From Hyphomicrobiaceae bacterium (GTDB lineage: Bacteria; Pseudomonadota; Alphaproteobacteria; Rhizobiales; Hyphomicrobiaceae): DNA of 48,311 nucleotides. The stretch covers positions 1-48,311 of the forward strand of contig DATBKR010000686.1 of NCBI GenBank assembly GCA_036555805.1, written 5' to 3'. Position numbers and translations under genes: made by a program. The notes beneath the pieces are model-generated. The model did no database searches, was not told the DNA's origin, and saw only the letters and a list, made by a program, of their open reading frames with translations. Of this stretch, positions 8,465 to 46,636 are shown piece after piece (position 1 is the stretch's first letter; every line of letters starts with the position of its first letter).

Positions 8465-9622
8465 ATGGACTTCGATCTGAGCGACGAGCAGCGGCAGCTG
8501 AAGGAGAGCGTGGAGCGGCTGCTCGCCGACGCCTACGGCGATCTCAACCTGCGCAAGGGCTATATCAAGGAGCCGAGAGGCTACAGCGCGGCGTTGTGGC
8601 AGCAGTATGCCGACCTGGGCCTGCTCGCAGCGCCCTTCGCCGAGGAGCACGGCGGCCTCGGCCTGGGGCCCACGGAGGCCATGATTGTCGCCGAGGCGCT
8701 CGGCCGCGCGCTGGCGGTGGAGCCCTACATGGCCGCCATCGTGCTCGCCGGCGGCGCGCTGCGCCAGGCCGGCAACGCCGCGCTGCTCGCCGACCTCGTG
8801 CCGGCCATCGCCGCCGGCCAGCTCACCCTCGCCCTGGCGCACCAGGAGCGGCAGGCGCGCTACGATCTGGCCGACACCGCCACCACCGCCCGCGCCGACG
8901 GCAAGGGCGGCTACACGCTGGAGGGCGAGAAGGTGGTGGTCCTCGCCGGCGACAGCGCCGACAAGCTCATCGTCTCCGCGCGGGCATCGGGCGCGCGCGC
9001 CGACCGCGGCGGCATCGGCCTGTTCCTGGTCGATGCCAAGGCCAATGGCGTCACCCGGCGCGGCTATCCCACACAGGACGGCATGCGCGCGGCGGACGTC
9101 ACGCTCTCCGGCGTCAAGGTGGCGCCGGAGGCGGTGCTGGCCGGACCGGACACGAATCCGGGGGGCCTCGAGGTGCTGGAGCGGGTGGTGGACGAGGCCC
9201 TCGCGGCGCTGGCGTCGGAGGCCGTGGGCGCCATGGCGGGGCTCACCGATCTCACCGTGGAGTATCTCAAGACGCGCAGGCAGTTCGGCGTGCCGATCGG
9301 CTCGTTCCAGGTGCTGCAGCACCGTGCCGTGGACATGCTGACCGCCCTGGAGCAGGCACGCAGCATGGCCTTCTACGCCACCATGATGGCGACCGAGCCG
9401 GACGCCCAAGAGCGCCGCAGGGCAATGGCGGCGGCCAAGGTGCAGATCGGCCGCTCGGGCCGCTATGTGGGCGAGAGCGCCATCCAGCTCCACGGCGGCA
9501 TCGGCATGACCATGGAGTACAAGGCCGGCCACTACTTCAAGCGCCTCTCCATGATCGACCTCGCCTTCGGCGACGCCGGCCACCACCTGCGCGAACTGGC
9601 CCGGATGGGCGGGCTGTCGTAG
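8465..9622 (+). CDS. pimD: Acyl-CoA dehydrogenase, pimeloyl-CoA dehydrogenase small-subunit-like
   Basis: 385 aa. MDFDLSDEQRQLKESV..., YLKTRRQFGVPIGSFQVLQHRAVDM, IQLHGGIGMTMEYKAGHYFKR. It lies directly downstream of the large-subunit-like gene. Confidence 0.75.
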   Translation: MDFDLSDEQRQLKESVERLLADAYGDLNLRKGYIKEPRGYSAALWQQYADLGLLAAPFAEEHGGLGLGPTEAMIVAEALGRALAVEPYMAAIVLAGGALRQAGNAALLADLVPAIAAGQLTLALAHQERQARYDLADTATTARADGKGGYTLEGEKVVVLAGDSADKLIVSARASGARADRGGIGLFLVDAKANGVTRRGYPTQDGMRAADVTLSGVKVAPEAVLAGPDTNPGGLEVLERVVDEALAALASEAVGAMAGLTDLTVEYLKTRRQFGVPIGSFQVLQHRAVDMLTALEQARSMAFYATMMATEPDAQERRRAMAAAKVQIGRSGRYVGESAIQLHGGIGMTMEYKAGHYFKRLSMIDLAFGDAGHHLRELARMGGLS

Positions 9623-10681: not shown

Positions 10682-11815
10682 ATGACCACGCCGGTTCCAG
10701 CGCCGTTCACGCTGCATGTTCCCGACAGCGCCATCGCCGACCTCAAGGAGCGGCTGGCACGCACACGCTGGCCCGATGAGCCGCCGCTCGAGCCTTGGGC
10801 CACTGGGACGAGCGTGGCCTATATCAAGGACCTCGCGGAGTATTGGCGCACGAGCTTCGGCTGGGGCGCCTGGGAAACAAAGCTCAACTCATTCCGCCAG
10901 TTCACGGTGCCGATCGGCGGCATCGATCTGCACTTCATCCACGAGCCGGGCCGCGGGCCCAACCCGATGCCGCTGCTCATCTCCCACGGCTGGCCCGGCT
11001 CGGTGTTCGAGTTCCACAAGCTGATCCCGCTGCTCACCGAGCGCTTCACGGTGGTCGCGCCGTCGCTGCCCGGCTACACACTCTCGTTCAAACCGGGGCA
11101 GAAGCGCTTCGGCGTCGGCGAGATCGCCGATCTCTATGCCGAGCTGATGACCGACGTGCTCGGCTACCGGCGTTTCGGCGTGCAGGGCGGCGACTGGGGC
11201 GCCTTCGTCGCCTCGGTCATGGGCCTGCGCTATCCGGACCGGGTGTCCGGCGTCCATCTCAACCTGCTGGCGGTGCGGCGCGACCCGGCGATGCTGTCGA
11301 ACCCGACGCCCGAGGGGAAGGTCTATCTGGAGCAACTCCAGCACTTTCTCAAGGAGGAGACGGGTTACCAGTGGATTCAGGGCACCAGGCCCCAGACGCT
11401 GGCCTACGCCCTTACCGACTCGCCGGCAGGACTGCTGGCGTGGATCGTCGAGAAGTTCCGCGCCTGGACCGACAATACCGGCAGCCCAGAGGACGCCGTC
11501 AGCCGCGACGAGATGCTCGCCAACATCGCGCTCTACTGGTTCACGGGCGCGATCGGCTCGTCCTTCTGGCCCTATTACGCCCGCATGCACGGCCCCTGGC
11601 CGATTGCCGAGGGTCAGACGGTCGGTGTGCCCGTGGGCTACGCGCAATTCCCCAGGGAGATCCTGCGCCCCCCGCGCTCGCTCGCCGCCAAGACCTATAC
11701 CGACATCCGCCGCTGGAGCGTCATGCCCAAAGGCGGCCACTTCGCCGCCCTGGAGCAGCCGGAGGCTCTGGCGCGCGAGGTGGTTGAGTTCTTCCAAATC
11801 CTCGGAGCGGCGTAG
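10682..11815 (+). CDS. Epoxide hydrolase (microsomal-type, EHN N-terminal domain plus alpha/beta hydrolase)
   Basis: The track ORF 9734..11815 is trimmed to the ATG at 10682 (MTTPVPAPFTLHVPDSAIADLKERLARTRWPDE). Motifs: IHFIH-type segment, HGWPGS, nucleophile motif GGDWG. Confidence 0.85.
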   Translation: MTTPVPAPFTLHVPDSAIADLKERLARTRWPDEPPLEPWATGTSVAYIKDLAEYWRTSFGWGAWETKLNSFRQFTVPIGGIDLHFIHEPGRGPNPMPLLISHGWPGSVFEFHKLIPLLTERFTVVAPSLPGYTLSFKPGQKRFGVGEIADLYAELMTDVLGYRRFGVQGGDWGAFVASVMGLRYPDRVSGVHLNLLAVRRDPAMLSNPTPEGKVYLEQLQHFLKEETGYQWIQGTRPQTLAYALTDSPAGLLAWIVEKFRAWTDNTGSPEDAVSRDEMLANIALYWFTGAIGSSFWPYYARMHGPWPIAEGQTVGVPVGYAQFPREILRPPRSLAAKTYTDIRRWSVMPKGGHFAALEQPEALAREVVEFFQILGAA

Positions 11816-11854
11816 GTGCATGCTGCGGAAGCGGCCGGCACACCCTTCTGCAAA

Positions 11855-13732
11855 TCACGGCCCGTCGGCCTCAAGGGCCAGTGTCAGGCCCGCAAGCAGT
11901 CGCTCTTGAGGCTGATGCCCGTGCCTCGCCAAGCTGAACTCGACCAATCGCTGTTGGTCAGTGAGGCCAGGCGTAAGCTTGCGCAGTTCTGCGACGTGTC
12001 GGTGTGCCTCCTGCCACTCGCCAGTTAGCGCGTGCAAGGCGGCCAGGCTTGCGTGCACGTAGGGACCATGCGGGCGGGCGGCAATCGCCTCATTGAAAGC
12101 TGCCCGAGCCGCGTCCAGATGGCCCAGTTCCAGTTCGGCCCAACCCGCCCACAACTGCCAAACCGTAACGATCGATGTATCGGCATTCAAGCGCTGCGCG
12201 TAGCGGATCAGTTGAAGCGCCTCCTCGTACCTGTGCAAATTGATGAGAGCGCGTCCCTTTCCGGCGTAGGCCGGGGCATGGCTGGGATTGATCTCGAGTG
12301 CACGATCATAGCTTTCCAAAGCCGCCGAAAGGTTGCCCTCGATTCTGTGCAGGAGACCGAACCAGTAGTGCACGGCATCATTTTGCGTGTTCCGCGCGAG
12401 AGCGCGGCGCAAGAGGTCTTCGGCCTCGTTCACGTGCTGATCGCGCTCGGCCAAAAGGTAGTATGCCGCAAGGCCGATCATGGCGCCGGTAGACTCTGGA
12501 TCGCGTCGCAAGGCCTCGCTGAAAGACGCTTTGGCGCCGTTAAACAGCGGCGAGTCTTCGGTATCCAATATGCCGGCACGGCCACGTGCCACGAGGTCGC
12601 CGACGCTCGGCTCCTTGCCTGGATTGAGCGCCTCAGCTCCAACGCGTCGCATCAGCTCGAAGTGGACCGCAAACACCGTCCGTCGCACGATATCCTCTTG
12701 CGCCAAGGGCCATTTGCTCGAATCCTGGGAAAAATGATGCGACCACAGGTGCTGCCCCGAACGCGCGTCGATGACAGCTATGTTAACCCGCAGCTGGTCG
12801 CCTTCAGCGTAGACGGCCCCGACAAGAACGTAGCGAGTGCCCGTGCTGGCGCCGCTGGCTCTGACATCCGGTTGCCGGCCGGGGGAGTGCTGCGCAACAC
12901 CCTGGCTCGAAACAACTCGCAACGCATGGATCCGTGACAGGTAGTTGGTGAGGTCGGCGTTCATCCGCTCCGCCAAGCTCGCCGCGCTGCCGGACGTGGC
13001 GGTGAATGGCAGGACGGCGATAGGGATGCCGCCCGACGTTATTTGGGACGCCTGCAGGATCCCGTTTCGGGCATTGGCGTCAACCAGTGTCGGGGCGTTG
13101 TGGAGCGCAAGCCAGAAGAGACCCAGCAAGGCACTAGCCGCCAGCAGAGAGCTCCCTAACCGTCGACGATCAAAGGCCTGAAGCGCGAAAGAGGCAAAGG
13201 TGGTCGCCCGCGCCCCCTCCCCATGGGATGATGCCCGGTCACCCTTGGCAGGAGCTGATTCGACACGCGCTTCCGCGCGATCACCGGCTGCGGGTGAGGG
13301 AGCTGGCCCGTCACTCCGATCACATGGTTCTGGCAGGCGAGATTCCTCACCGACCCACTCCGTTGAGGGTGGGAGCACATTCTGGCTGCTTGCCGGCGCC
13401 CGTGTGACGGCCGCGGCCAAGAGGTAGCCGCGGCCGGGTATGGTTTTGACGATCTGCTGCCCCCGGTCGCCGAGCGCCCGGCGGATGTCACTTACACACC
13501 TGGCGATCGATTCATCGGTTACGCTCACACCCGGCCAGACCGCCTGAAACAACGCGTCCTTGGTCACGAGCCGGCCTGCGTGCTCGACGAGGCAACACAG
13601 CACGTCGAAGCTCTTCGGGCGCAACTCAACACCGCGTTCGGCGGCGCACAGAGTGCGGCGCGTCATGTCGAGGATGAAGCCCTCGAACTCGTACACCCTT
13701 TCATAGACTGCATCCATGAACGCAACCGACAA
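11855..13732 (-). CDS. Membrane-anchored transcriptional regulator: N-terminal OmpR/CadC-type winged helix, TM segment, TolB-N-like domain, C-terminal TPR repeats
   Basis: 625 aa. The wHTH is YEFEGFILDMTRRTLCAAERGVELRPKSFDVLCCLVEHAGRLVTKDALFQAVWPGV...IPGRGYLL. The hydrophobic segment is LLAASALLGLFWLAL. Then IAVLPF...YVLVGAVYAEGDQLRVNIAVIDARSGQHLW. The C-terminal part has several TPR-like A/Y/L repeats. Confidence 0.8.
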   Translation of the reverse strand: MSVAFMDAVYERVYEFEGFILDMTRRTLCAAERGVELRPKSFDVLCCLVEHAGRLVTKDALFQAVWPGVSVTDESIARCVSDIRRALGDRGQQIVKTIPGRGYLLAAAVTRAPASSQNVLPPSTEWVGEESRLPEPCDRSDGPAPSPAAGDRAEARVESAPAKGDRASSHGEGARATTFASFALQAFDRRRLGSSLLAASALLGLFWLALHNAPTLVDANARNGILQASQITSGGIPIAVLPFTATSGSAASLAERMNADLTNYLSRIHALRVVSSQGVAQHSPGRQPDVRASGASTGTRYVLVGAVYAEGDQLRVNIAVIDARSGQHLWSHHFSQDSSKWPLAQEDIVRRTVFAVHFELMRRVGAEALNPGKEPSVGDLVARGRAGILDTEDSPLFNGAKASFSEALRRDPESTGAMIGLAAYYLLAERDQHVNEAEDLLRRALARNTQNDAVHYWFGLLHRIEGNLSAALESYDRALEINPSHAPAYAGKGRALINLHRYEEALQLIRYAQRLNADTSIVTVWQLWAGWAELELGHLDAARAAFNEAIAARPHGPYVHASLAALHALTGEWQEAHRHVAELRKLTPGLTDQQRLVEFSLARHGHQPQERLLAGLTLALEADGP

Positions 13733-14007
13733 CTGGCACGCTGCCTTGCGACATCTCTTTCAGAAATTTTCACCCCTAGAGCAGGCGCGCTTTCACACGC
13801 TTTCAGGACGCTCGGCGTCCAGTCTGGCAGCATCGCATGCGAGGAGCACCGGAGCAATGGTGTACGTGCTGCCTGGGGGTAGTCGTATCCGGCTGGTGAC
13901 GCATCGCAACGGGTCCGCCACCTCGATCCAGGACGTGGTGACGTGAAGTCATAGGTAGCCGACCGCGGCAGCCCCTCAGGCAGTCTACGACCATAAGGCA
14001 AATTTGC

Positions 14008-14319
14008 ATGAGTGAGAGGATCAGACCGGAACAGCGGCCGGCAAGCGCGCGCCGAGCGGCGCTTCCCGTTCTCGTACTGGTGGCGTTTGGCTGCGCAGTG
14101 GCCACCATCCTGCCGGTCCCGGACGCCGAAGCACGCGGGCCCGGATCCTGGCAGCCCTATCATACCTGGCGGGTCAAAGGGAGCAGTCCGGCAGCACGCT
14201 TATTCCCCTTGAAACGCCAGCGCGTCCCTAAAAGCTCCTACTACCAGACCGGTATTGGCGAGAAGGCCGTCAAAGGAGGGAGCCCGGCGGCTAACGTCTT
14301 CAGGCCACACTCACAATGA
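14008..14319 (+). CDS. Small secreted basic protein with an internal duplication (hypothetical)
   Basis: 103 aa. AAGG lies 9 nt upstream of the ATG. The signal-like N-terminus is RRAALPVLVLVAFGCAVATILPVPDAEA. The duplicated segments are VKGSSPAARLF and VKGGSPAANVF. Its stop overlaps the next start (ATGA at 14316-14319). Confidence 0.45.
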   Translation: MSERIRPEQRPASARRAALPVLVLVAFGCAVATILPVPDAEARGPGSWQPYHTWRVKGSSPAARLFPLKRQRVPKSSYYQTGIGEKAVKGGSPAANVFRPHSQ

Positions 14320-15500
14320 ACGGTCCGCTGGGCATACGCGTGAGATCAGCCCGCCAACGCGGCCGTGCGGTTAGCCCTTGGGCCCGATGGCGTCCGATCA
14401 GTACGTGGTCGAGACTTATAATCGTTGTGATAGCGAGCTCTCTCGCAATGCGCGCGCTGGCGGGCGATGACGCCGTCGACCCGCGGTATCCAGGCCGGTA
14501 TTGCTTTTGGTACGGATCGTGCCCGTTCTCTGGGGCGGGGCGGGGAGAATGCCCCGCTCCGTACCAGGATCCAGGCATTGTACCCGATGTGGTGTTCGGC
14601 AAGCCGCAAAGTCTTCTTTGGGGTACAGAGCGTCTCTGCGCAGGGTGGGGATGGAAAAACCTCTGCTGCGAGCCACTGGGTTCTGTCTCGCAGGATGAAA
14701 AAGCGTCAACGCCGCCGCCCAGTCACCCTGCAAACGTGCCAATCACGATCACTCCGCGACCAGCAGACCGCTCCCCGGCGTTGGATCAACCTGTAGACAG
14801 GCTGATCGGCCCCCATCCCGCAGACGGCCGCCCCCCCCTGAGTCAACCTTCCAGCGCACCAATCACCGTCTATCCGGCAGATCCCTCCTCATTGGATCTG
14901 CCCGTGCGCAAGGTCATCGGCGCTCATCCGACAGACGACGGGTCGGCGTCGGTTCAGCCTGCGAATAGGCCTACCGGCGTCTATCCAAAGGAACCGAGCG
15001 GCCCTGTGGTGAAGCCCGGCGGCCCCTATCAAGCCTATCCCAGCGGCCCTTCCGCACATGGTCTGCCGCCGTTCGGCCAATCCGTAAGCACGCCGATCGG
15101 GCCCCATCCCGCTGGAATTCCCAGCGCGCCCGGCGGCGGATTCGATGCGTCTAAGAATCTGCCGCCCTTCGGTCAGCCCGGGAGTCAGCCCGGGAGCATG
15201 CCATTTGGCTCCGCCGCCAATCCCCTGCCCAAGGCACCCGATGGCGTTGCAGTGAGCACGCAGGGGAACGCGAACAAGTCACCAGGCACAATGACGACAA
15301 ATACAGGCGGCATCTATCAAGTGCATCCAGGCGGCACCGCGCTAAACGGCTCCAAGGGTATTTCGGTGAAGAAGGATCAATCCACGAAACTTGGAAAATC
15401 TCCCGGTGCTGCTACGGGCCCCTTGCGCAGGCGGAATTCGATGAGCCATCGGAACCGCTGGCGGGCTGCCATGAGGCGATACCGGTCTGCGCATCACTAG
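14316..15500 (+). CDS. Secreted Cys-rich / Pro-rich repeat protein (hypothetical)
   Basis: 394 aa. Hydrophobic segment LIIVVIASSLAMRALA-GD. A six-Cys module runs from YCFWYGSCPF to NLCCE. Three degenerate repeats are marked by IGPHPADG, IGAHPTDD and IGPHPAGI, encoded with different synonymous codons. The C-terminal tail is very basic. Confidence 0.5.
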   Translation: MNGPLGIRVRSARQRGRAVSPWARWRPISTWSRLIIVVIASSLAMRALAGDDAVDPRYPGRYCFWYGSCPFSGAGRGECPAPYQDPGIVPDVVFGKPQSLLWGTERLCAGWGWKNLCCEPLGSVSQDEKASTPPPSHPANVPITITPRPADRSPALDQPVDRLIGPHPADGRPPLSQPSSAPITVYPADPSSLDLPVRKVIGAHPTDDGSASVQPANRPTGVYPKEPSGPVVKPGGPYQAYPSGPSAHGLPPFGQSVSTPIGPHPAGIPSAPGGGFDASKNLPPFGQPGSQPGSMPFGSAANPLPKAPDGVAVSTQGNANKSPGTMTTNTGGIYQVHPGGTALNGSKGISVKKDQSTKLGKSPGAATGPLRRRNSMSHRNRWRAAMRRYRSAHH

Positions 15501-15573
15501 GACGTGTTGAGTTCGTGCGACGCAATTCTCATTGCGACCTGCCGCACTCCGAATTCCCACTCTGGAGCTGAGC

Positions 15574-16698
15574 ATGCCGGCATCCAAAATTGTTCTCGCG
15601 GTCGGCCTCTTGCTCGCTGTCGCGTTCACGCCAGCGATTGCCCAAACATCGAGTACCGGCCCGACGCCACCAGGGCGGGGGCAGCAGCCCGAGCTGTCTG
15701 TCGCCCAATTCGCCTGCCCGAGGGGCACGCAAGTCTTGCTGCTGATCGAGCAAGGCAACGTTCCAGCCTATCTGGTCGTCGATGAACTGCCGGCGCCGGG
15801 ACAAGGAACCGGGAGGCGCCTGGATGCCAGAACGGTGTCTCCCAATGAGATGCCGGTTACGCTTGATCTCACCTCGCTGGTTGGGGATCTGGACGTGCGG
15901 GTTCTGGTGCGAGATCGCACGGCCGATCAAAGCAACCGCAAGGACATCCAGGCGAACCTGGCCGGCTATATCGGCTGCGGCCAGTGGCAGGCACGCATCG
16001 CCGGGGGCCAGCCGGCCGCATTCCTGCTGAAGCGGGCCCAGCAATCGCAATCGAGCACTCCCGCGCCCGCGGCTCCCACACCAACGGCTCCCACGCCTGT
16101 AGCTCCAGCGCCGGTCACTTCGGCGCCGGTGGCCCCAGCGCCGGTGAGCCGGGCCGAGAATATCGCCAATGGAAAGCTGACGTACCGCGGCTTCACGGTC
16201 GATGTAGCCGCGATCAGAAGCTCGCAGGAGCGCGATGCAATCATCGCCTCCCTCCAACATCAGATCGACATTGCTGCGGACTGCGGCGCCAAGCAGGACG
16301 TGCTTCATTTCTTTCAGAGCCAGGAAATAGTCGTGAGGAGCGACCTGCGCGACCCGTATGGTCACTTCGACAAGCGCGGAGTGTCAATCAAGGCCGCCGT
16401 GGCAGCCCCGCAAAAACCGATTGTCCTCCATGAGCTGCTTCACGCCTTCCACTTCAAGGTGATGTCCGGCCGTTTCCGGAATGCCGAGATCCTCAAATTC
16501 TACAATCGGGCGAAGTACAACCGGTTCTACCCGGAAGACGCGTATGTGTTGAAGAATGTGCTGGAATTCTTCGCGGTGACCGCGAGCCTCTATCTGTGGG
16601 GTCACGTCGATCGTGAACCGTATACACGCGAAAAGCTGAAGGCCATTCAACCGATCTACTACGCGTGGCTGGGAGAGCTGTTCGGTGTGAGGAAATGA
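15574..16698 (+). CDS. Secreted two-domain protein with a C-terminal HExxH...E (gluzincin-like) putative metallopeptidase domain
   Basis: The track ORF 15532..16698 is trimmed to the ATG at 15574 (GGAG 6 nt upstream). Signal peptide MPASKIVLAVGLLLAVAFTPAIA-Q. A P/A/T linker is encoded at about 16057-16146. HELLH is at 16429-16443 within VLHELLHAFHF. The Glu of LEFFAV is at 16564-16566. Confidence 0.65.
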   Translation: MPASKIVLAVGLLLAVAFTPAIAQTSSTGPTPPGRGQQPELSVAQFACPRGTQVLLLIEQGNVPAYLVVDELPAPGQGTGRRLDARTVSPNEMPVTLDLTSLVGDLDVRVLVRDRTADQSNRKDIQANLAGYIGCGQWQARIAGGQPAAFLLKRAQQSQSSTPAPAAPTPTAPTPVAPAPVTSAPVAPAPVSRAENIANGKLTYRGFTVDVAAIRSSQERDAIIASLQHQIDIAADCGAKQDVLHFFQSQEIVVRSDLRDPYGHFDKRGVSIKAAVAAPQKPIVLHELLHAFHFKVMSGRFRNAEILKFYNRAKYNRFYPEDAYVLKNVLEFFAVTASLYLWGHVDREPYTREKLKAIQPIYYAWLGELFGVRK

Positions 16699-17416
16699 TG
16701 GCACGCGGCGCGCGCAATCGACTCTCGTCCGCTTGCGCGGCTGCGCGTGGAGGAGGCGCCAGGCACCGTTGTCCGGTCTGACGGCGCGGTGCTCGCGCCT
16801 TTCGCAGAGGTCGGAAGACGTCCTGCTTTTTTGATCGATTGGGCGCTGGCGTACCTGCGCCGGGCCGGCTTGCGCACCGCCCCGCCTGGCGCCAAGTCGG
16901 GCTTTTCTTGGCGGTGCTCGGTGCCAGCGTGGTCGCGGGCCCAGGGGGCCGGACGGGCCGACGAGGTCGATGTCGCCGTGGATGCGTTCGTCGCGGGCGG
17001 GGCGCTGGTCGGCATCGGCATCGGGCCGAACGAGGAGCGACGAGGACCGGACTGACGTGAGCCTGCTGACCGTCCAGCCGATCATCAATGCCTCAGCAAG
17101 CGAACCACATCACGACCATGTGATCACGCGTCGGAAGGTCACAGAGAACGATCCTCGGCTTCCCGTCGCGCATGCGGCGCGGGGCCACTCACACTTCGTG
17201 CCGGATTCGGTCGTGAGCAAACACAGCAAGGGGCGTACTCGATCACTCGAGAACTCACTTGACCACCTCCTCGGCGCGCCGGCACAGCGCGGGTTGTTGC
17301 CTCCAATACTTGACAGGATATGACAGGCGCAGTTCGAATGGGTGGATAAAGCCTCGGGAACGGACTGATCCGCCACAAAAGTCCGTCGTTAGAACAATAA
17401 CTCAGGGGAGGGTTCC

Positions 17417-18607
17417 ATGACCCAACGGGCAATGCGCGCCGGCCTGGTGGCGCTCGCTTTCCTTCTCATGTTCGCGCCGGCGCCCAGCCGGGCCCAGAAT
17501 AAGGAGGTGCTGGTCGGCGGGGCGATCTCGCTGACCGGTCGCTTCGCGGAGCCCGCGGGCCGGCAGGTGAATGCCATCAAGATGTGGGTCGAGGAGGTCA
17601 ACGGCCGCGGAGGCCTGCTTGGCCGCAAGATCAAGCTGCTGCTCCTCGACGACAAGTCGGACACCCAGACCGCCGTCAAGCTCTACGAGAAGCTCATCAC
17701 AGAGGACAAGGTCGAGGTGCTCCTCGCCCCCTACTCGAGCGCGATCACCGAGGCGGTGGCCAACATCAACGAGCGCTACAAGATGCCATTCGTCGCCTAC
17801 GGCGCCTCGTCGAGCCCCATCTGGGAGAAGGGCCGCAAGTACATCTTCAGCATCGTCGCCGTCGCCGAGGACTACCAGAAGGGCGCTGTGCACCTCGCCA
17901 AGCAGATCGGCGTGAGCAAAGTTGCCATCATCGGCGAGGACAGCCTCTTTCCGCGGCAGGCCGGCGTCGGCGCCAAGCGGTGGGCAGACAAGCTCGGCAT
18001 CCAGGTCGTCCTCCAGGAGAATTACCCCCAAAAGCAGACCGACTTCACCGCCCTGCTGCAGAAGATCAAGGCCTCCGGCGCCGAGGCGGTCCTGTCGAAC
18101 AGCTACTTCGCCGATGCGGCGGCCCAATTGCGGCAGATGCGCGAGCTGAACCTGAACTTTAAGCTCTACTCCAGCACGATCGGTCCGAGCCTGCCGAACT
18201 TCCCCGAGCAACTCGGCGGCACCGCCGAGTACGTGCTGGGCTTCAGCCAGTGGGAGCCGATCCCGGACGTTCTGAAGCTTCCCGGCATGAGGGAGTTCAT
18301 CGCCGACTACGAGAAGCGCTTCGGCGAGAAGCCCAACTACCATGCCGGCAGCGCCTACGGCGCGCTCCAGGTGACCGAGGCGGCGCTCAAGGAGGCCGGC
18401 AGCTTCGACCAGGAGAAGTTGCGTGAGGCCCTCGCCACCATCGAGGTCACGACCGTGTTCGGACGCTACAAGGCTAACGCCAAGGGGATGAACGAGCACG
18501 AGGGCCTGACATTCCAGATCCTTGGTGGCAAGCGGCTCACGGTTTTTCCCGAGAAATGGGCCGAGACGAAGGCCAAGCTCCCCGCGCCCGACTGGAACAA
18601 GCGGTAG
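17417..18607 (+). CDS. ABC transporter substrate-binding protein, LivK/Peripla_BP_6 (branched-chain amino acid-type) family
   Basis: 396 aa. Signal peptide ...LLMFAPAPSRA-Q. Then VGGAISLTGRFAEPAGRQVNAIKMWVEEVNGRGGLLGRKIKLLLLDDKSD. GGGGAGGG lies upstream of the ATG. Confidence 0.9.
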   Translation: MTQRAMRAGLVALAFLLMFAPAPSRAQNKEVLVGGAISLTGRFAEPAGRQVNAIKMWVEEVNGRGGLLGRKIKLLLLDDKSDTQTAVKLYEKLITEDKVEVLLAPYSSAITEAVANINERYKMPFVAYGASSSPIWEKGRKYIFSIVAVAEDYQKGAVHLAKQIGVSKVAIIGEDSLFPRQAGVGAKRWADKLGIQVVLQENYPQKQTDFTALLQKIKASGAEAVLSNSYFADAAAQLRQMRELNLNFKLYSSTIGPSLPNFPEQLGGTAEYVLGFSQWEPIPDVLKLPGMREFIADYEKRFGEKPNYHAGSAYGALQVTEAALKEAGSFDQEKLREALATIEVTTVFGRYKANAKGMNEHEGLTFQILGGKRLTVFPEKWAETKAKLPAPDWNKR

Positions 18608-42138: not shown

Positions 42139-44115
42139 GTGAGGACGCCGTCAGCGGGCACAGACGCAGTACACAATTCGACATGCGCCGTCGAACAAGA
42201 GAGCCTTGACGAGCAGATCATCAATGGCAAGGAAGCCGTCGCCAATGCGTTAGCTGAGGCCGGCGCTCTTTCGCTGGACGTTTTGCAAGCCCTTCCTGTG
42301 GCCGTTTACGTTACGGACGCCTTGGGCCGGATCACCTTCTTCAACGAAGCGGCTGCCACGCTCTGGGGTTGTCGCCCCGAACTAGGCAAAAGCGAGTTTT
42401 GCGGGTCCTGGAAGCTGTATTGGCCCGATGGCACACCTCTCCCGCATGACGAGTGCCCCATGGCCCTGGCACTCAGGCAACGACGCCCCATCCGCGGCAT
42501 CGAAGCGGTCGCCGAGCGACCCGATGGGAGCCGCGTTCCTTTCATCCCGTATCCGACTCCGCTGGTCGACGCGTCCGGTGAGCTGACCGGGGCGATCAAC
42601 TTGCTGGCGGATATTTCGCATAGCAAGAGCACAGATGCGTCCCTGGCGAGACGCCGGGACGAACAAAACGCATTGTATCAATTCACCGACAGACTCTTCC
42701 GAGCAGCGTCGTTGGCTGACGTCCACAGCGCAGGTTTGGCCGCTATCGCCGACGCGCTGCGCTGCGAACGCGCTTCGATACTGCTCTTCGATAGCTCCGG
42801 TGTGATGCGGTTCGTCGCGTGGCGCGGTTTGTCCGATGCCTACCGACGGGCTGTTGAAGGACACTCGCCCTGGACGCGCCAGGTAAAGGACCCGCAGCCC
42901 CTCTGTATACCCGATGTCGAAGGGGCGGAATTCTCCGACCAGCTCAAGGCAGCCGTCAAAGCCGAGGGTATCGGCGGACTTGCTTTCATTCCACTCGTTG
43001 CGAGCGGCGAACTCATTGGCAAGTTCATGACCTACTACGACGCCCCCCACGTTTTCAGTAACGACGAGGTCGCACTTGCTGTCACCATTGCGCGGCAGCT
43101 CGGGTTCGGTATTGAGCGTGTGCGTGCCGATCAGGCGGGGCGGCTGCTGGCCTCGATAGTGGAGACGTCAGACGATGGGATCGCGAGCAAGGATCTCGAC
43201 GGTATCGTAACCAGCTGGAATCGCGGCGCTGAGCGGATCTTCGGCTACGGGGCCGCTGAAATGATCGGCCGGTCGCTCCTAACCGTGATTCCACGGGATC
43301 GCCACGGTGAAGAAGTGGAAATTCTGGACAAGCTCAGACATGGCGAGCGCATCGACCACTTTGAGACCGTCCGCCAGCGCAAGGATGGAAGCCTGATCGA
43401 CGTCTCGATTACGGTGTCACCCGTACGGGATGCAACAGGGAAAATTGTCGGTGCGTCCAAGATCGTCCGTGACATCAGTGAGAGAAAGCAGGCTCAGGCA
43501 CGGCACGAGTTGCTGACGCGGGAAATTCAACATCGGACCAAGAACCTGTTTGCAGTCGTGCTCGCCGTTGTTTCCAGAAGCTTCGCCGGCAAGCAGAGCG
43601 TCGCAGACGCGGAGGCTGCCGTCGTGGGCCGTCTCCGTTCACTCGGTCAGACCCACGTCATCTTGATGGACAAGAAGTGGCAGGGCGCCGATCTCGATGA
43701 AATTGTACGGTCTGAGATGAGTCCCTACACCGGCCGCGTGCAAGTGGAGGGACCGAGCTTGATGCTCAATGAGAAGGCGACACAAAACTTTGCGCTCGCC
43801 GTACATGAACTTGCAACGAACGCCGCCAAGTATGGCGCACTGTCGAATACAACCGGTCAGGTCCACGTTAGGTGGTGGGAGAGCTCGGACTGCTTGACGT
43901 TTCGCTGGCAAGAGCGAGGCGGTCCTTCCGTGGCGTCTCCGGCGCACAAAGGGTTCGGAAGCGTGGTGCTCGAACACCTGATGGCCGAGCATTTCGAAAC
44001 GCTTCCCGAGATGGATTTTGCATCGAGCGGCTTAACCTATTCGCTCACGACTTCGCTCGGCTCGATTGCGGCGAGCGACCGACGAACTTCCCACCAGGGA
44101 GGATGCAGTGAGTAA
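42139..44115 (+). CDS. PAS-GAF-PAS sensor histidine kinase of the HWE/HisKA_2 class
   Basis: 658 aa. GTG start with GAGGGAG 7 nt upstream. PAS segments are VYVTDALGRITFFNEAAATLWG and IVTSWNRGAERIFGY. The H-box is LTREIQHRTKNLFAVV. The HWE-type ATPase region is VRWWESSDCLTFRWQERGGP...GFGSVV. Confidence 0.85.
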   Translation: MRTPSAGTDAVHNSTCAVEQESLDEQIINGKEAVANALAEAGALSLDVLQALPVAVYVTDALGRITFFNEAAATLWGCRPELGKSEFCGSWKLYWPDGTPLPHDECPMALALRQRRPIRGIEAVAERPDGSRVPFIPYPTPLVDASGELTGAINLLADISHSKSTDASLARRRDEQNALYQFTDRLFRAASLADVHSAGLAAIADALRCERASILLFDSSGVMRFVAWRGLSDAYRRAVEGHSPWTRQVKDPQPLCIPDVEGAEFSDQLKAAVKAEGIGGLAFIPLVASGELIGKFMTYYDAPHVFSNDEVALAVTIARQLGFGIERVRADQAGRLLASIVETSDDGIASKDLDGIVTSWNRGAERIFGYGAAEMIGRSLLTVIPRDRHGEEVEILDKLRHGERIDHFETVRQRKDGSLIDVSITVSPVRDATGKIVGASKIVRDISERKQAQARHELLTREIQHRTKNLFAVVLAVVSRSFAGKQSVADAEAAVVGRLRSLGQTHVILMDKKWQGADLDEIVRSEMSPYTGRVQVEGPSLMLNEKATQNFALAVHELATNAAKYGALSNTTGQVHVRWWESSDCLTFRWQERGGPSVASPAHKGFGSVVLEHLMAEHFETLPEMDFASSGLTYSLTTSLGSIAASDRRTSHQGGCSE

Positions 44116-44470
44116 CGGAGTCCTGGCCGGCCGTTCGATCCTGATCGTCGAGGACGAGCCTTTGATTGCATTGGAGGTGCATGCGGCATTCCGCGCCGCG
44201 GGCGCAAACATCGCGTCGGCAGCCGATGCTCAGGAAGCTCTGAGGATGATCAATGTGCCGGGCCTATCCGCCGCGTTGGTCGACATCAATCTTGGGAGTG
44301 GCGACTGTTCAGCCGTTTGCGAGCGGCTCGCTCGCCAGGGGATCCCCTTTGTCTTCTACACCGGGGAGGCGCGGCCCGATATCCTGCTCAAGTGGCCCAG
44401 CGCGCCGGTCCTGACCAAGCTCGCAGACAAGCAGCGCGTTGTCGAGGTCGTGGCAGGCGTCATCCGCTGA
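44108..44470 (+). CDS. Single-domain (CheY-like) response regulator
   Basis: The start is placed at GTG 44108 (GGGAGGA 5 nt upstream), overlapping the kinase stop by 8 nt. Contains SILIVEDEPLIA and the phospho-acceptor context ALVDINL, with no output domain. The track alternative is ATG 44066. Confidence 0.8.
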   Translation: MSNGVLAGRSILIVEDEPLIALEVHAAFRAAGANIASAADAQEALRMINVPGLSAALVDINLGSGDCSAVCERLARQGIPFVFYTGEARPDILLKWPSAPVLTKLADKQRVVEVVAGVIR

Positions 44471-44659
44471 GGCGTTCCACAGACGCGATGTCTCAGATGG
44501 TGCAGGTATCTCGGACGCCGTGCCGGCGAGGGTGCCGCGCACTCCGTCAAGGCGGCGTCCGAGACGCGCCCAGGCACGAAATCGCGATTGGGGAGGCTCA
44601 ACGGTGAGGCCGGCTCCCTGGGGATTTGGGCAGGACCATATCCTCAAGGAGACACTTCC

Positions 44660-44725
44660 ATGCGCCACACTTCCCCTCTTGGACATGGACACCATCACGG
44701 TCATGGCGGTCATCATCATCGCTGA
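44660..44725 (+). CDS. Unannotated 21-codon His-rich micro-ORF (MRHTSPLGHGHHHGHGGHHHR)
   Basis: My own reading: AAGGAG at 44646-44651, an 8-nt spacer, ATG at 44660 and TGA at 44723-44725. Nine of the 21 residues are His and five are Gly. Confidence 0.35.
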   Translation: MRHTSPLGHGHHHGHGGHHHR

Positions 44726-44762
44726 CGACCCGGCTTGAGGGCCGCGCCGGCAGCGGCGTCGG

Positions 44763-45017
44763 CTACTTGCTGATTTCGAGCTGCCTACAGAACTTTCCGA
44801 ATTCTTCCTTGGTCCACCTCAGGCCAGCGCGCCATCCTGCCTTGCATTCATCTTTCGTCGGATTGATGACCAAGCTCTCTCCGCCCTTGGGAACGGGCAG
44901 CGTCTTCGGCGGCGCGGTGGGGCCAGGCGACGGCGATGTCTGAGCGAGGATCGCCCCAGCGATGCCGACGCAAACGGCGATGACCGCGGCCAATCTCGCT
45001 GCGATATTAGTAACCAT
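44763..45017 (-). CDS. Small secreted protein (hypothetical, two Cys)
   Basis: 84 aa. Signal-like segment AARLAAVIAVCVGIAGAILA-Q, then a Pro-rich spacer, then INPTKDECKAGWRAGLRWTKEEFGKFCRQLEISK. Confidence 0.5.
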   Translation of the reverse strand: MVTNIAARLAAVIAVCVGIAGAILAQTSPSPGPTAPPKTLPVPKGGESLVINPTKDECKAGWRAGLRWTKEEFGKFCRQLEISK

Positions 45018-45682
45018 ACGGCATAAACGCGCCTTCCTGCGGCCCGGTTCCGAAGGTCCAGCCGATTGTGGATCAGTGCATGGCCCACATCATTGGCATG
45101 GTCGGCTTCCGGTCCAATACGTGCGGCAAGTGCAAAAAAGCCACCCCCGGTCAGCTACCGCAGCGAGTCGGAGGACGCATGGAAGACCGTAGTGCTCAAC
45201 GGGTGGCGCCGGCTGTGCCGGATTCGACTGAGCCGGCGGTACGCCGGAGAGACACCGCGGCGCGTCCGTCGCAGCGGAGCGGGCTCTCGCCTCGGCCCTG
45301 GCGCGGCTGCGAATTTACTGGCCAGCGCATCTGCGCGCGATGCGCACCTTCGCATCGCATACTCACGTCTGATGTCGATCTGACGTATTTTGTCAGCAAC
45401 ATATCAGATTCAAGCTGACTGTTGCCTGATAGATACAGCGCAGGGTGATGATTGCTGATACAAAGGACGCAGCTGAGACGATTGATACTGTCGCTGAATT
45501 GGGGTGCGGGGCGGGTCGCATTACATATTGGTATCTGCCTCTTCGGTTCGTCAGGGCTTGTTGCGTTCGGCGCTGCGGACAGATGCCTGGACCGAGGAGC
45601 CGGTATTTTACGGGCTCCTCGGGAGGCAGCGAGGGTCGACTGCCGTCATTGACGTTCCTTTGGGTATTGAGGTTGAGAACGT

Positions 45683-46636
45683 ATGGAAGCACGGGCCGCA
45701 GTTGGGCTTTCGAGCAAGGGAGCCCGGCCATGTTTCACTCCGCGGACGGGAGAGAAGGCGCAACCGGCGTCAGCCGCGCGGCATGTCGAGGTGCTGCGCG
45801 CCGGAGCTCGGGCGTGGAATGCCTGGAGACTCGAGAATCCCGGCATCGTTCCGATCCTGAATGATCTCAACGTGTCTGCAACCGAGCGCCAATTCGGTCG
45901 CGTCCAGGGCGGTCCGATCAATCTCAGTCGGGCACAATTGTGCCGGGCGCGGCTGGACCAGGCAACGCTGATCGAGGCGAACTTGATGGGCGCCGCGCTC
46001 ACGGAAGCAGACCTCGCTGACGCGCGGCTGGAGCGGGCCGACCTGCGCGGCGCCAGGTTCGATTACGCCAATCTTGCGGGGGCGCAGCTCAACGGGGCCA
46101 ATCTGCGCGGCGCTCACCTGCGCCTCGCACGAGGCCTGACGCAAGCTCAAATCGATCGAAGCCTGGGCGATCATCGCACCGCTCTGCCGGCCCATCTGAC
46201 GACACCTGGGGCTTGGCTCGAGGAAGCACCCCCGGACCGCCGGCGAAACGTGCTTCAGACCGGGCAGTCCAACGTCGACGCCGACAAGATGGGCGACTCC
46301 GCGTTCCTTCGGGCCGGCCCTCGGTCCGCCATCCGAGAGGCTCGCGCGAGCAAGCGGCGCCATACCATCGATCGAGCCTGTCAGGAAATGAAGAAGCTCG
46401 AACGCCGGGCAGGCGGGGGGCACGAGGTGTCCGGCCCGCTACCTACCTCCAATATCGTCTTTGCGGCGGTCCTGGTGGCTGCGATCGCCGTCGGCGCCCT
46501 GATCGCGATGACGGAGAGCCGCTCGGAACGTCCCGGCACCCCTCCGGGCGAAGCGACGCCCGTGCTCGGCATCAGCGCTCAGGACGGTGGATCACAAACC
46601 GTGCTGCCGAGAGCTGGGCAGCGCTCCTCCGGCTAG
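45683..46636 (+). CDS. Pentapeptide-repeat protein with a C-terminal transmembrane anchor; start uncertain
   Basis: Contains a WNAWRLENP lead-in typical of pentapeptide proteins. It is followed by about 20 A(D/N)LxX repeats (ANLMGAALTEADLADARLERADLRGARFDYANLAGAQLNGANLRGAHL). The TM segment IVFAAVLVAAIAVGALIAM is near the C-terminus. Confidence 0.7.
   Translation: MEARAAVGLSSKGARPCFTPRTGEKAQPASAARHVEVLRAGARAWNAWRLENPGIVPILNDLNVSATERQFGRVQGGPINLSRAQLCRARLDQATLIEANLMGAALTEADLADARLERADLRGARFDYANLAGAQLNGANLRGAHLRLARGLTQAQIDRSLGDHRTALPAHLTTPGAWLEEAPPDRRRNVLQTGQSNVDADKMGDSAFLRAGPRSAIREARASKRRHTIDRACQEMKKLERRAGGGHEVSGPLPTSNIVFAAVLVAAIAVGALIAMTESRSERPGTPPGEATPVLGISAQDGGSQTVLPRAGQRSSG

Follow-up and report, generated by a model that had tools for sequence, protein, structure and literature searches.

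A 48,311-bp stretch of DNA from a Hyphomicrobiaceae bacterium (the complete NCBI contig DATBKR010000686.1, here called the window, to which all coordinates refer, including those of an earlier note made from its sequence) carries a compositionally foreign island in which a regulator gene on the minus strand stands divergently to three genes on the plus strand, termed genes 1, 2 and 3 in that order. The C-terminal domain of the gene 3 product is very probably an M34/ATLF-like zinc protease that is closest to the Pro-Pro endopeptidases (PPEPs; EC 3.4.24.89), and gene 2, which is extremely rare in sequence databases, encodes a predicted secreted protein with repeated di-proline units. By analogy with the PPEPs, the best explanation, to which we give a probability of about 0.5, is that the island encodes a PPEP-style proteolytic module, located in the envelope or secreted, in which the adjacent gene would provide the substrate. 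No pairing of a PPEP-like protease with a Pro-rich partner is described outside the Firmicutes, and a search of the full-text literature found no description of PPEP-like enzymes in Proteobacteria.

The gene 3 protease

A profile of the gene 3 family searched against all PDB sequences returned only Pro-Pro endopeptidases. The strongest match was PPEP-2 from Paenibacillus alvei (6fpc, E value 1.8e-8, or 4.9e-8 with a deeper profile of 60 members), and weaker matches were obtained to PPEP-1 (Zmp1/CD2830) from C. difficile (E 0.2-0.3) and to PPEP-3 from Geobacillus. Alignment of gene 3 with PPEP-1 by hhalign (E 7e-5, probability 62%, ∼30% identity), for which the PPEP-1 sequence was checked against the deposited chains, places H286, E287 and H290 on H142, E143 and H146 of the HETAH motif, Y324 on Y178 and E331 on E185. 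All five gene 3 residues are invariant in 60 family members. E331 opens the segment EFFAVTASLYL and Y324 lies seven residues upstream, in register with the PPEPs, which share the HExxH motif, a Glu ligand within E-F/Y-F-A and a Tyr seven residues before it. The next residue, V325, aligns with L179 of PPEP-1 and V175 of PPEP-2 at the S2' position, so that gene 3 and PPEP-2 have Val in common there. In PPEPs the counterparts of these residues are described as zinc ligands, general base and oxyanion Tyr (PMC12828418), and on that basis gene 3 is predicted to be an active M34-type gluzincin in which H286, H290 and E331 would bind zinc, E287 would act as the general base and Y324 would stabilise the transition state.

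The predicted structure agrees with this assignment. In the AlphaFold2 (AF2) model of gene 3 the predicted local distance difference test score (pLDDT) is 92-98 for the C-terminal domain and ∼80-86 for the N-terminal domain, and the strands and helices of the C-terminal domain occur in the order of the PPEP fold, in which an α/β N-terminal subdomain with an edge strand precedes the active-site helix and a helical C-terminal subdomain. The top PDB match by Foldseek is PPEP-3 (9g3t_B; probability 1.0, template modelling (TM) score 0.53, root-mean-square deviation 7.4 Å), with 204 alignment columns against a chain of 206 residues, and anthrax lethal factor (LF) is found lower in the same list. 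Against the Pfam family ATLF (PF07737) gene 3 scores 17.5-18.7 bits (E 0.0015-0.0036), below the gathering threshold of 27.4, while 42 of 60 gene 3 relatives match the same family (E <= 0.01, best 2e-6) and no other family recurs. By these scores the gene 3 family forms a distant clade outside the formal membership of Pfam ATLF. MtfA/M90 was considered as a relative and rejected; the family profile gave no PDB match to it even at E <= 10. The earlier note could place none of the three plus-strand genes in a family, which no longer holds for gene 3 but stands for genes 1 and 2, neither of which is assigned to any family by Pfam and NCBIfam scans.

Most relatives of the catalytic domain have a simpler architecture. 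They are signal-bearing 'hypothetical proteins' of ∼210 residues, with 219 hits in a word-index search and at least 168 relatives in one-per-species genomes, each matching only residues ∼180-374 of gene 3, and they occur in Bradyrhizobium, Rhizobium, Rhizomicrobium, Eremiobacterota, Opitutia, Massilia, Burkholderiales and other groups. The genes for these catalytic-domain-only proteins (loci L012-L091, among them L017-L025 of Bradyrhizobium and L036-L045 of Rhizobium) are solitary and have no conserved neighbour. The additional N-terminal domain of gene 3 is confined to a handful of metagenomic homologues. It belongs to no Pfam family, and by Foldseek it gives weak β-sandwich matches to the transforming growth factor β (TGF-β) latency peptide (E ∼3e-3, TM < 0.3).

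Comparison with diverged copies at related loci indicates that genes 1, 2 and 3 are all under purifying selection, with ratios of nonsynonymous to synonymous substitution rates (dN/dS) of 0.22-0.62. For gene 3 the ratio is 0.27 against locus L003 and 0.62 for the N-terminal 89 codons against L008; for gene 2 it is 0.36 overall and 0.22 in the Cys-rich head, and for gene 1 it is 0.37. Values of 0.12-0.28 were obtained for the pair of loci L001 and L002.

Gene 2 and its pairing with the protease

Gene 2 is extremely rare. A word-index search found five homologues, and an exhaustive HMMER search at E <= 0.001 gave seven hits among 1.84 billion representatives, whereas pattern scans of 185,579 one-per-species genomes and of 241 million metagenome records found no relatives. 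Members of the family are composed of a signal peptide, a Cys-rich head, a fast-evolving Pro/Gly stalk and a conserved basic tail (…RWRAAMRRYRSAHH). The six Cys residues of the head are invariant in all five of the word-index homologues. Other family members (L092, L093 and P0129) carry instead an unrelated head of ∼280 residues with 12 Cys, an exchange that leaves the motif of the stalk and the basic character of the tail in place. The six Cys and Pro-rich repeats of gene 2, the internal duplication in gene 1 and the HExxH…E arrangement of gene 3 had been pointed out before from the window alone and are real features, visible in the homologue alignments; the SPxA-type resemblance proposed to connect gene 1 with KSPGAATGPL, in the tail of gene 2, is not supported, as homologues do not conserve it.

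Where a gene 2-family gene is followed by readable sequence, the next gene belongs to the gene 3 family and begins 30-75 nt downstream. The contexts read were those of the window and loci L009-L011, L008, L003, L001, L002 and L092/L093; the contigs of P0002, P0005 and P0128 were left out, and L094 ends before any downstream gene. L009-L011 represent the same strain in other samples (99.9% identity). L008, with 77% nucleotide identity to the window, keeps the 5' end of the regulator gene on the minus strand together with genes 1, 2 and 3. L003 contains the C-terminal part of gene 2 and then gene 3 (82% identical), followed by different downstream genes. In L001 and L002 a 116-residue, R/D-rich, signal-bearing protein is followed by gene 2 (47-48% identical) and a 273-residue protease that lacks the N-terminal domain, and in L092 and L093 a gene 1 homologue precedes the gene 2 relative with the 12-Cys head and a full-length gene 3 (54% identical). 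In addition, P0127, a 125-residue fragment of a gene 2 tail, has the same size as the gene annotated directly 5' of P0002, a gene 3 homologue. Gene 2 thus always directly precedes a gene 3-family protease in the sequences examined, but the reverse does not hold, since no relative of gene 1 or gene 2 was present at any of the 80 catalytic-domain-only loci checked (of 168 relatives detected). The conserved core of the island consists of genes 1, 2 and 3. The L001/L002 island also encodes further signal-bearing, Cys-containing small proteins downstream of the protease, a caspase-like Peptidase_C14 protein and, upstream, a 452-residue protein without a family (L001 6524-6799, 7647-8393 and 2288-3646). 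These extra genes may be members of the module in that lineage.

The stalk is built around a recurring unit, x-P-P-[L/F/I/V]-[G/S/T]-[Q/E], which is seen 18 times in seven family members where ∼0.1 would be expected from composition. The only invariant block of the stalk, R172 P173 P174 … Q177 P178 S179, holds one of these units. The window protein has three units of the form PP-Φ-[G/S]-Q, where Φ is a hydrophobic residue, and the second and third are encoded within a 23-nt DNA repeat, D2 (copies at 15062-15084 and 15158-15180), that specifies LPPFGQ. The DNA of the stalk consists of degenerate repeats, including a 47-nt unit present four times at 64-77% identity (14775-15112). Between L003 and the window the stalk is 45% identical at the protein level while the adjoining gene 3 is 82% identical, which points to fast turnover of the stalk repeats or to recombination among them.

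The first ∼27 codons of gene 2 (14316-14411, including the ATG that overlaps gene 1) align to non-coding sequence in L008 (553-665), where gene 2 has a later ATG start (MSMWSR…), and the window gene has no ATG, GTG or TTG between codon 9 (GTG 14340) and codon 38. The unusually long n-region, of 32 residues (∼24 from GTG 14340), may therefore be a lineage-specific extension.

Gene 1, the regulator and the setting of the island

Gene 1 is the weakest member of the trio as a real gene. A word-index search of 5.8 billion proteins found only gene 1 itself, and its homologues were recovered by tblastn on the fetched loci, upstream of a gene 2-type gene in L008 (67% identity over residues 43-99) and in L092/L093 (43-44%). 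The predicted protein has a Tat-like n-region (ARRAAL in the window, SRRAAL or ARRAAL across homologues), then a hydrophobic core, and a junction, AEA↓RGPG, that is conserved; the mature part of ∼61 residues carries two G-[S/H]-P-x-A-x-x-F units. The internal duplication (VKGSSPAARLF and VKGGSPAANVF) is considered real because the homologue alignment contains two G-[S/H]-P-x-A-x-x-F units. In L008 the start codon and the C-terminal two thirds are conserved, but the stretch that separates the two has diverged and lies in another frame. A lipoprotein assignment based on VAFGC was rejected, the lipobox being non-canonical and its Cys not kept in L092/L093. The loci with gene 1, namely the window, L008 and L092/L093, also have the N-terminal domain of gene 3, and in L001/L002, where gene 3 lacks this domain, the unrelated 116-residue protein takes the place of gene 1. 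In the loci compared, gene 1 thus tracks the gene 3 N-terminal domain.

Table 1. Coordinates of the island features in the window. Functional assignments are predictions; the arrow marks a predicted cleavage point.
Feature	Position	Strand	Basis or remark
ToxR/CadC-type one-component regulator	11855-13732	-	625-aa open reading frame; Pfam, NCBIfam, hydropathy
Divergent intergenic region, presumed shared promoter/operator	13733-14007	.	275 nt between divergent starts
Gene 1, small basic exported protein (predicted), 103 aa	14008-14319	+	signal 14008-14133; homologues, dN/dS
Gene 2, modular secreted protein (predicted), 394 aa, candidate substrate	14316-15500	+	homologues, dN/dS
Gene 2 long n-region and signal	14316-14462	+	
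Gene 2 six-Cys head	14463-14690	+	
PPLSQ, first PP-Φ-[G/S]-Q unit, candidate cleavage site	14832-14846	+	within invariant stalk block
PPFGQ, second PP-Φ-[G/S]-Q unit, candidate cleavage site	15066-15080	+	DNA repeat D2
PPFGQ, third PP-Φ-[G/S]-Q unit, candidate cleavage site	15162-15176	+	DNA repeat D2
Gene 2 basic C-terminal tail, ends HH	15372-15497	+	
Gene 3, secreted two-domain zinc metalloprotease (predicted), 374 aa	15574-16698	+	profile, AF2/Foldseek, Pfam
Gene 3 signal peptide, AIA↓Q	15574-15645	+	
Gene 3 β-rich N-terminal domain, aa ∼41-165	∼15694-16068	+	
Gene 3 Pro/Ala linker	16069-16167	+	
Gene 3 PPEP/LF-like catalytic domain, aa ∼199-374	16168-16695	+	
HELLH zinc-binding/catalytic motif, H286 E287 H290	16429-16443	+	invariant in 60 members; hhalign
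Y324…E331 (YVLKNVLE), catalytic/oxyanion Tyr and third zinc ligand Glu	16543-16566	+	invariant; hhalign
Terminator-like hairpin and T-run	16884-16902	+	186 nt past gene 3 stop; possible operon end

The products of genes 1, 2 and 3 each begin with a basic n-region and a hydrophobic 19-mer (mean Kyte-Doolittle value 1.6-2.5), in agreement with the signal-like N-termini reported previously, and this supports the prediction that the genes encode an extracytoplasmic module. An operon layout is supported in the window by the four bases ATGA shared by genes 1 and 2 (14316-14319), the 73-nt gap between genes 2 and 3 and a GGAG ribosome-binding site 6 nt 5' of the gene 3 ATG; these details and the coordinates of all four open reading frames were verified as the earlier note gave them. 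The coupling through ATGA is not conserved, however, as genes 1 and 2 of L008 are separated by 108 nt and gene 2 starts later. No sigma-70 consensus site was found in a promoter search of the region. Terminator-like sites are no commoner there than in shuffled sequence, which makes the hairpin downstream of gene 3 weak evidence for an operon end. An Rfam scan of 11500-17700 at E <= 1 gave a chance match to a snoRNA as its sole result, and no cyclic di-GMP (c-di-GMP) or other riboswitch.

The regulator has the topology of the ToxR/CadC type, with an N-terminal winged helix of the OmpR/PhoB type (Pfam Trans_reg_C, residues 34-105, E 5e-16), one transmembrane segment (residues 192-210 by hydropathy) and a periplasmic sensor part, which matches TolB_N (E 1e-4, at threshold) and several TPR families (residues 235-600) in place of the CadC sensor domain. 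These domains are those named in the earlier note. On an identical contig the start is called at ATG 13717, giving 620 residues, and this is likely the true start. The N-terminus matches the NCBIfam CadC and HilA models, but the CadC equivalog NF007540 is matched over the N-terminal 175 residues only, with 56.7 bits against a cut-off of 400, and from these matches the regulator is CadC-like in topology and not CadC. Residues 297-590 also match NCBIfam TIGR04510, a 'putative peptide modification system cyclase' (E 1e-12, far under the cut-off), which is attributed to a TolB_N/TPR sensor module common to many alphaproteobacterial signalling proteins.

The regulator is not conserved together with the module. 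L009 has a copy of 99.8% identity and L008 retains the 5' end of the gene, and in L008 the intergenic region is conserved in the part proximal to the regulator and poorly so in the remainder. No regulator homologue was found in the contigs of L001, L002, L092 and L093, and L092 has a divergent gene for an AraC-family regulator upstream instead (HTH_18, E 2e-16). Similar regulator genes lie within 6 kb of 2 of the 80 solitary protease loci, and one is present in L006. Membrane regulators of the CadC type are common in such genomes, and the two neighbours are thus consistent with chance. The regulator was accordingly rejected as a conserved member of the module, only the L008/L009 lineage keeping it there, and on this distribution it is a lineage-specific, exchangeable add-on. 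The co-occurrence for which the earlier note suggested a test was found for the trio in L008, L092 and L093 and for the regulator only in L008/L009, and of the proposed regulator-controlled extracytoplasmic module the second term is retained and the first does not extend to the module as conserved.

The island is compositionally foreign. On the scale of the window the G+C content falls from 0.67-0.73 in the flanks to 0.625-0.645 across ∼11.5-18 kb (∼5 points), and the G+C content at third codon positions (GC3) of the four island genes (0.711, 0.692, 0.646 and 0.725) is 5.5 to 8 standard deviations (sd) under the host mean of 0.905 (sd 0.033, minimum 0.835, 16 flanking genes). A lower-GC islet had been deduced from hand counts of single 60-nt lines (36/60 at 14161-14220, 48/60 at 8701-8760) and from a codon string (ctt ata atc gtt gtg ata, position 14415 in the gene 2 frame), all of which are exact, and the GC3 deviation is stronger than had been seen. 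One flank carries genes for an acyl-CoA dehydrogenase, a 2-oxoglutarate oxygenase and an epoxide hydrolase, and the other carries branched-chain amino-acid ATP-binding cassette (ABC) transporter genes. Proteins nearly identical to those of the flanks occur in JGI metagenomes and in a metagenome-assembled genome labelled Hyphomicrobiaceae, and the HWE histidine kinases encoded elsewhere in the window also suit an alphaproteobacterium. The foreign composition and the differing flanks in L003 point to horizontal acquisition, as was suspected from the window alone, although no mobility gene or integrase, tRNA, or flanking direct or inverted repeat was found when these were looked for at the island borders. 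The ∼700 bp between gene 3 and the ABC-transporter binding protein (16699-17416) contain only small open reading frames without a family, for example 16747-17055, and keep the lower GC3 of the island, so the right border is probably near 17400. A second patch of low GC3 lies at 42139-46636 (bulk G+C 0.59-0.63 against ∼0.68 elsewhere) and encodes an HWE-type histidine kinase with GAF and PAS domains (42139-44115, GC3 0.69), a receiver-domain protein (44066-44470) and, after ∼1.2 kb without a confident open reading frame, a pentapeptide-repeat protein (45683-46636).

Proposed function and alternatives

PPEPs belong to the secreted M34 proteases and cleave the bond that joins two prolines. The substrates of PPEP-1 and PPEP-2, CD2831 and VMSP, are surface proteins with a head, a stalk and an anchor that carry repeated P↓P-X-P sites, and each is encoded by the neighbour of the protease gene (PMC8610288). 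Only two PPEPs have known endogenous substrates, and both of these were found through the adjoining gene (PMC8610288). Like the PPEPs, gene 3 is a predicted secreted M34-type zinc protease of which the ∼200-residue catalytic part has the two-subdomain fold, and it has as its neighbour a gene for a signal-bearing head-stalk-tail protein with repeated di-proline units. Both families are also split into members with and without an adjoining partner gene, and the partnered and solitary loci of the gene 3 family have a parallel in the Paenibacillus groups A and B. On the strength of the strict synteny and of this analogy we regard it as close to an even chance, or slightly under, that gene 2 is a dedicated substrate of gene 3.

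We propose that gene 3 would be exported via its Sec signal peptide and that gene 2 would likewise be exported, its product having a head rich in disulfides, an extended stalk of Pro and Gly and a basic tail that could serve as an anchor. Gene 3 would then cut the stalk of gene 2, most plausibly at the x-P-P-[L/F/I]-[G/S]-Q units, and thereby part the head from the tail, so that the head domain would be released or matured. Cleavage at these particular units is a tentative proposal, as is the idea that gene 1 would bind the N-terminal domain of gene 3 and modulate the protease, whether by inhibiting it or in the manner of a chaperone; such binding is suggested by the occurrence of gene 1 only where this domain is present. 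In this lineage the divergent ToxR/CadC-type regulator would probably couple expression of the operon to a periplasmic signal. The option of a protease with a substrate or partner, one of those raised in the earlier note, is hence the one favoured, while the other, a secreted toxin or adhesin set, has no specific support.

Several observations weigh against this proposal. The sequence similarity between gene 3 and the PPEPs is confined to the C-terminal ∼80 residues, with ∼30% identity to PPEP-1, and falls far short of the BLAST threshold of E <= 1e-25 to PPEP-1 or PPEP-2 that delimits the PPEP family (PMC8610288). The S-loop and the edge-strand subdomain are matched at the level of the fold only, and the specificity residues could not be aligned there by hhalign; in PPEPs an S-loop with Trp/Tyr, a diverting loop and S1/S1' pocket residues impose the double kink on the Pro-Pro substrate, and of the specificity positions S2' alone could be mapped onto gene 3. 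Canonical P↓P-X-P sites hardly occur in the gene 2 family, and the window protein contains no PPxP. Some units of P0129 have the sequence VPSLSQP or VPSFSQP, and because the second Pro is not invariant the units may serve as structural or binding elements instead of being cut; the PP-Φ-[G/S]-Q motif was, moreover, defined post hoc on related sequences. The AF2 model of gene 2, with a pLDDT of 39, is uninformative or reflects disorder and was left out of the fold search. The co-variation of gene 1 with the N-terminal domain comes from four lineages only. As the host is diderm and no outer-membrane export route is encoded nearby, all three proteins may stay periplasmic, and a role in adhesin release is not established. 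Finally, CD1597 of C. difficile, in which a genuine PPEP-like domain follows an extra N-terminal domain, showed no Pro-Pro activity (PMC11460543), so that such a domain is no guarantee of it.

In one alternative the protease would act on other targets, in a host, a competitor or the envelope, and gene 2 would be an independent Pro-rich envelope or structural protein that is not cleaved and is adjacent through co-regulation or co-transfer only. Genes of the ∼210-residue catalytic-only family are widespread and stand alone, with no conserved partner, in genomes of Bradyrhizobium, Rhizobium, Opitutia and others, which implies that an enzyme of the gene 3 type needs no gene 2, and the lack of PPxP sites and the tolerance of Pro-to-Ser changes in the stalk units fit an uncleaved protein. 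We nevertheless consider this rather unlikely. A gene with only seven hits in 1.84 billion representatives that precedes a gene 3 homologue in every readable context makes functional dependence between the two hard to avoid, the pairing persists across 42-82% protease identity, exchanges of the head and different flanks, and the closest characterised relatives of gene 3 use just such an arrangement with an adjacent substrate gene. That the trio is what remains of foreign DNA, decaying or without function, in which genes 1 and 2 especially are not expressed proteins, would account for the failure of AF2 on gene 2, the lack of a promoter consensus, the frame change of gene 1 in L008 and the flat G+C content of gene 2 over the three codon positions (0.63/0.61/0.65), which lacks GC3 periodicity. 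This flat profile is, however, expected of a protein with 15% Pro, encoded by CCN codons, and a remnant is highly improbable given dN/dS values of 0.22-0.38 (genes 1 and 2) and of 0.12-0.28 (L001 against L002), six invariant Cys and a retained tail across 43-68% identity, and open reading frames that stay intact in six or more diverged contigs.

The small size and predicted export of gene 1, its conservation at the mature end and its strict co-occurrence with the gene 3 N-terminal domain also fit a module for inhibitor or zymogen control, in which gene 1, perhaps with the N-terminal domain as a pro-domain, would keep the protease latent in the periplasm, gene 2 would be a released cargo or scaffold, and the main role would be the controlled secretion of a toxin-like protease of the LF type. 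AprA and AprI provide an example of a secreted metalloprotease with a small periplasmic inhibitor. The relation of the gene 3 fold to anthrax LF and the β-sandwich matches of the N-terminal domain to the TGF-β latency peptide are in keeping with such control, as is the suggestion by the authors of the CD1597 study that its N-terminal domain is inhibitory (PMC11460543). On the other hand, those fold matches are weak, gene 1 resembles no known inhibitor family by Pfam, NCBIfam or word-index search, and no secretion system or immunity gene is found near the island. Zymogen control as the main role is thus improbable, and as a mechanism it would be compatible with the processing of gene 2 by gene 3 that we prefer.

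The system differs from the known PPEPs in several respects. PPEP homologues are reported only in Clostridiales and Bacillales, that is, two orders and nine genera (PMC8610288), whereas the host of the island is an uncultured, diderm alphaproteobacterium of soil. The units of gene 2 have the form PP-Φ-[G/S]-Q in place of P↓P-X-P, and the putative substrate has a basic tail instead of an LPXTG or SLH anchor. PPEP-1 and PPEP-2 have c-di-GMP riboswitches on protease and substrate genes alike (PMC8610288), while the island has none and is apparently controlled by the divergent transcription factor. The protease is extended by an N-terminal β-domain, and a small gene, gene 1, joins the pair as a third component. 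Anthrax LF and the ATLF proteins of MEROPS family M34 share the HExxH…Y…EFFA gluzincin signature with gene 3, but gene 3 lacks an accessory or protective antigen-binding domain of the LF type and is not in a toxin locus. CD1597 resembles gene 3 in that an intact HExxH and a PPEP-like catalytic domain stand behind an additional N-terminal domain, and differs in having no adjoining Pro-rich partner and in having shown no Pro-Pro activity; as far as can be tested, the N-terminal domains of the two are unrelated.

The locus provides a distant and, from its conserved residues, apparently catalytically intact relative of the PPEPs in Gram-negative soil bacteria, with a candidate substrate adjoining it, and its specificity and function are open to direct test with two recombinant proteins. 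Should specificity for PP-Φ-[G/S]-Q not be confirmed, the island would be an ordinary secreted metalloprotease islet of modest interest. If instead cleavage occurs at PP-Φ-[G/S]-Q, the sequence rules for cleavage of proline-proline bonds would be wider than those now known, and the pair may yield a new orthogonal protease and tag for biotechnology. We think it possible, though on the unlikely side, that this is the first endopeptidase system of the Pro-Pro (or Pro-X) type in diderms, in which a dedicated substrate would be processed at PP-Φ-[G/S]-Q units, with release or activation of its disulfide-rich head, under the gating of the Tat/Sec-exported gene 1 product through the N-terminal domain, and the hundreds of ∼210-residue homologues would constitute a new and widespread clade of proline-specific envelope proteases. 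PPEPs have hitherto been seen as a curiosity of the Firmicutes, and the island offers an entry to a large family of 'hypothetical' proteases that is present in agriculturally important rhizobia.

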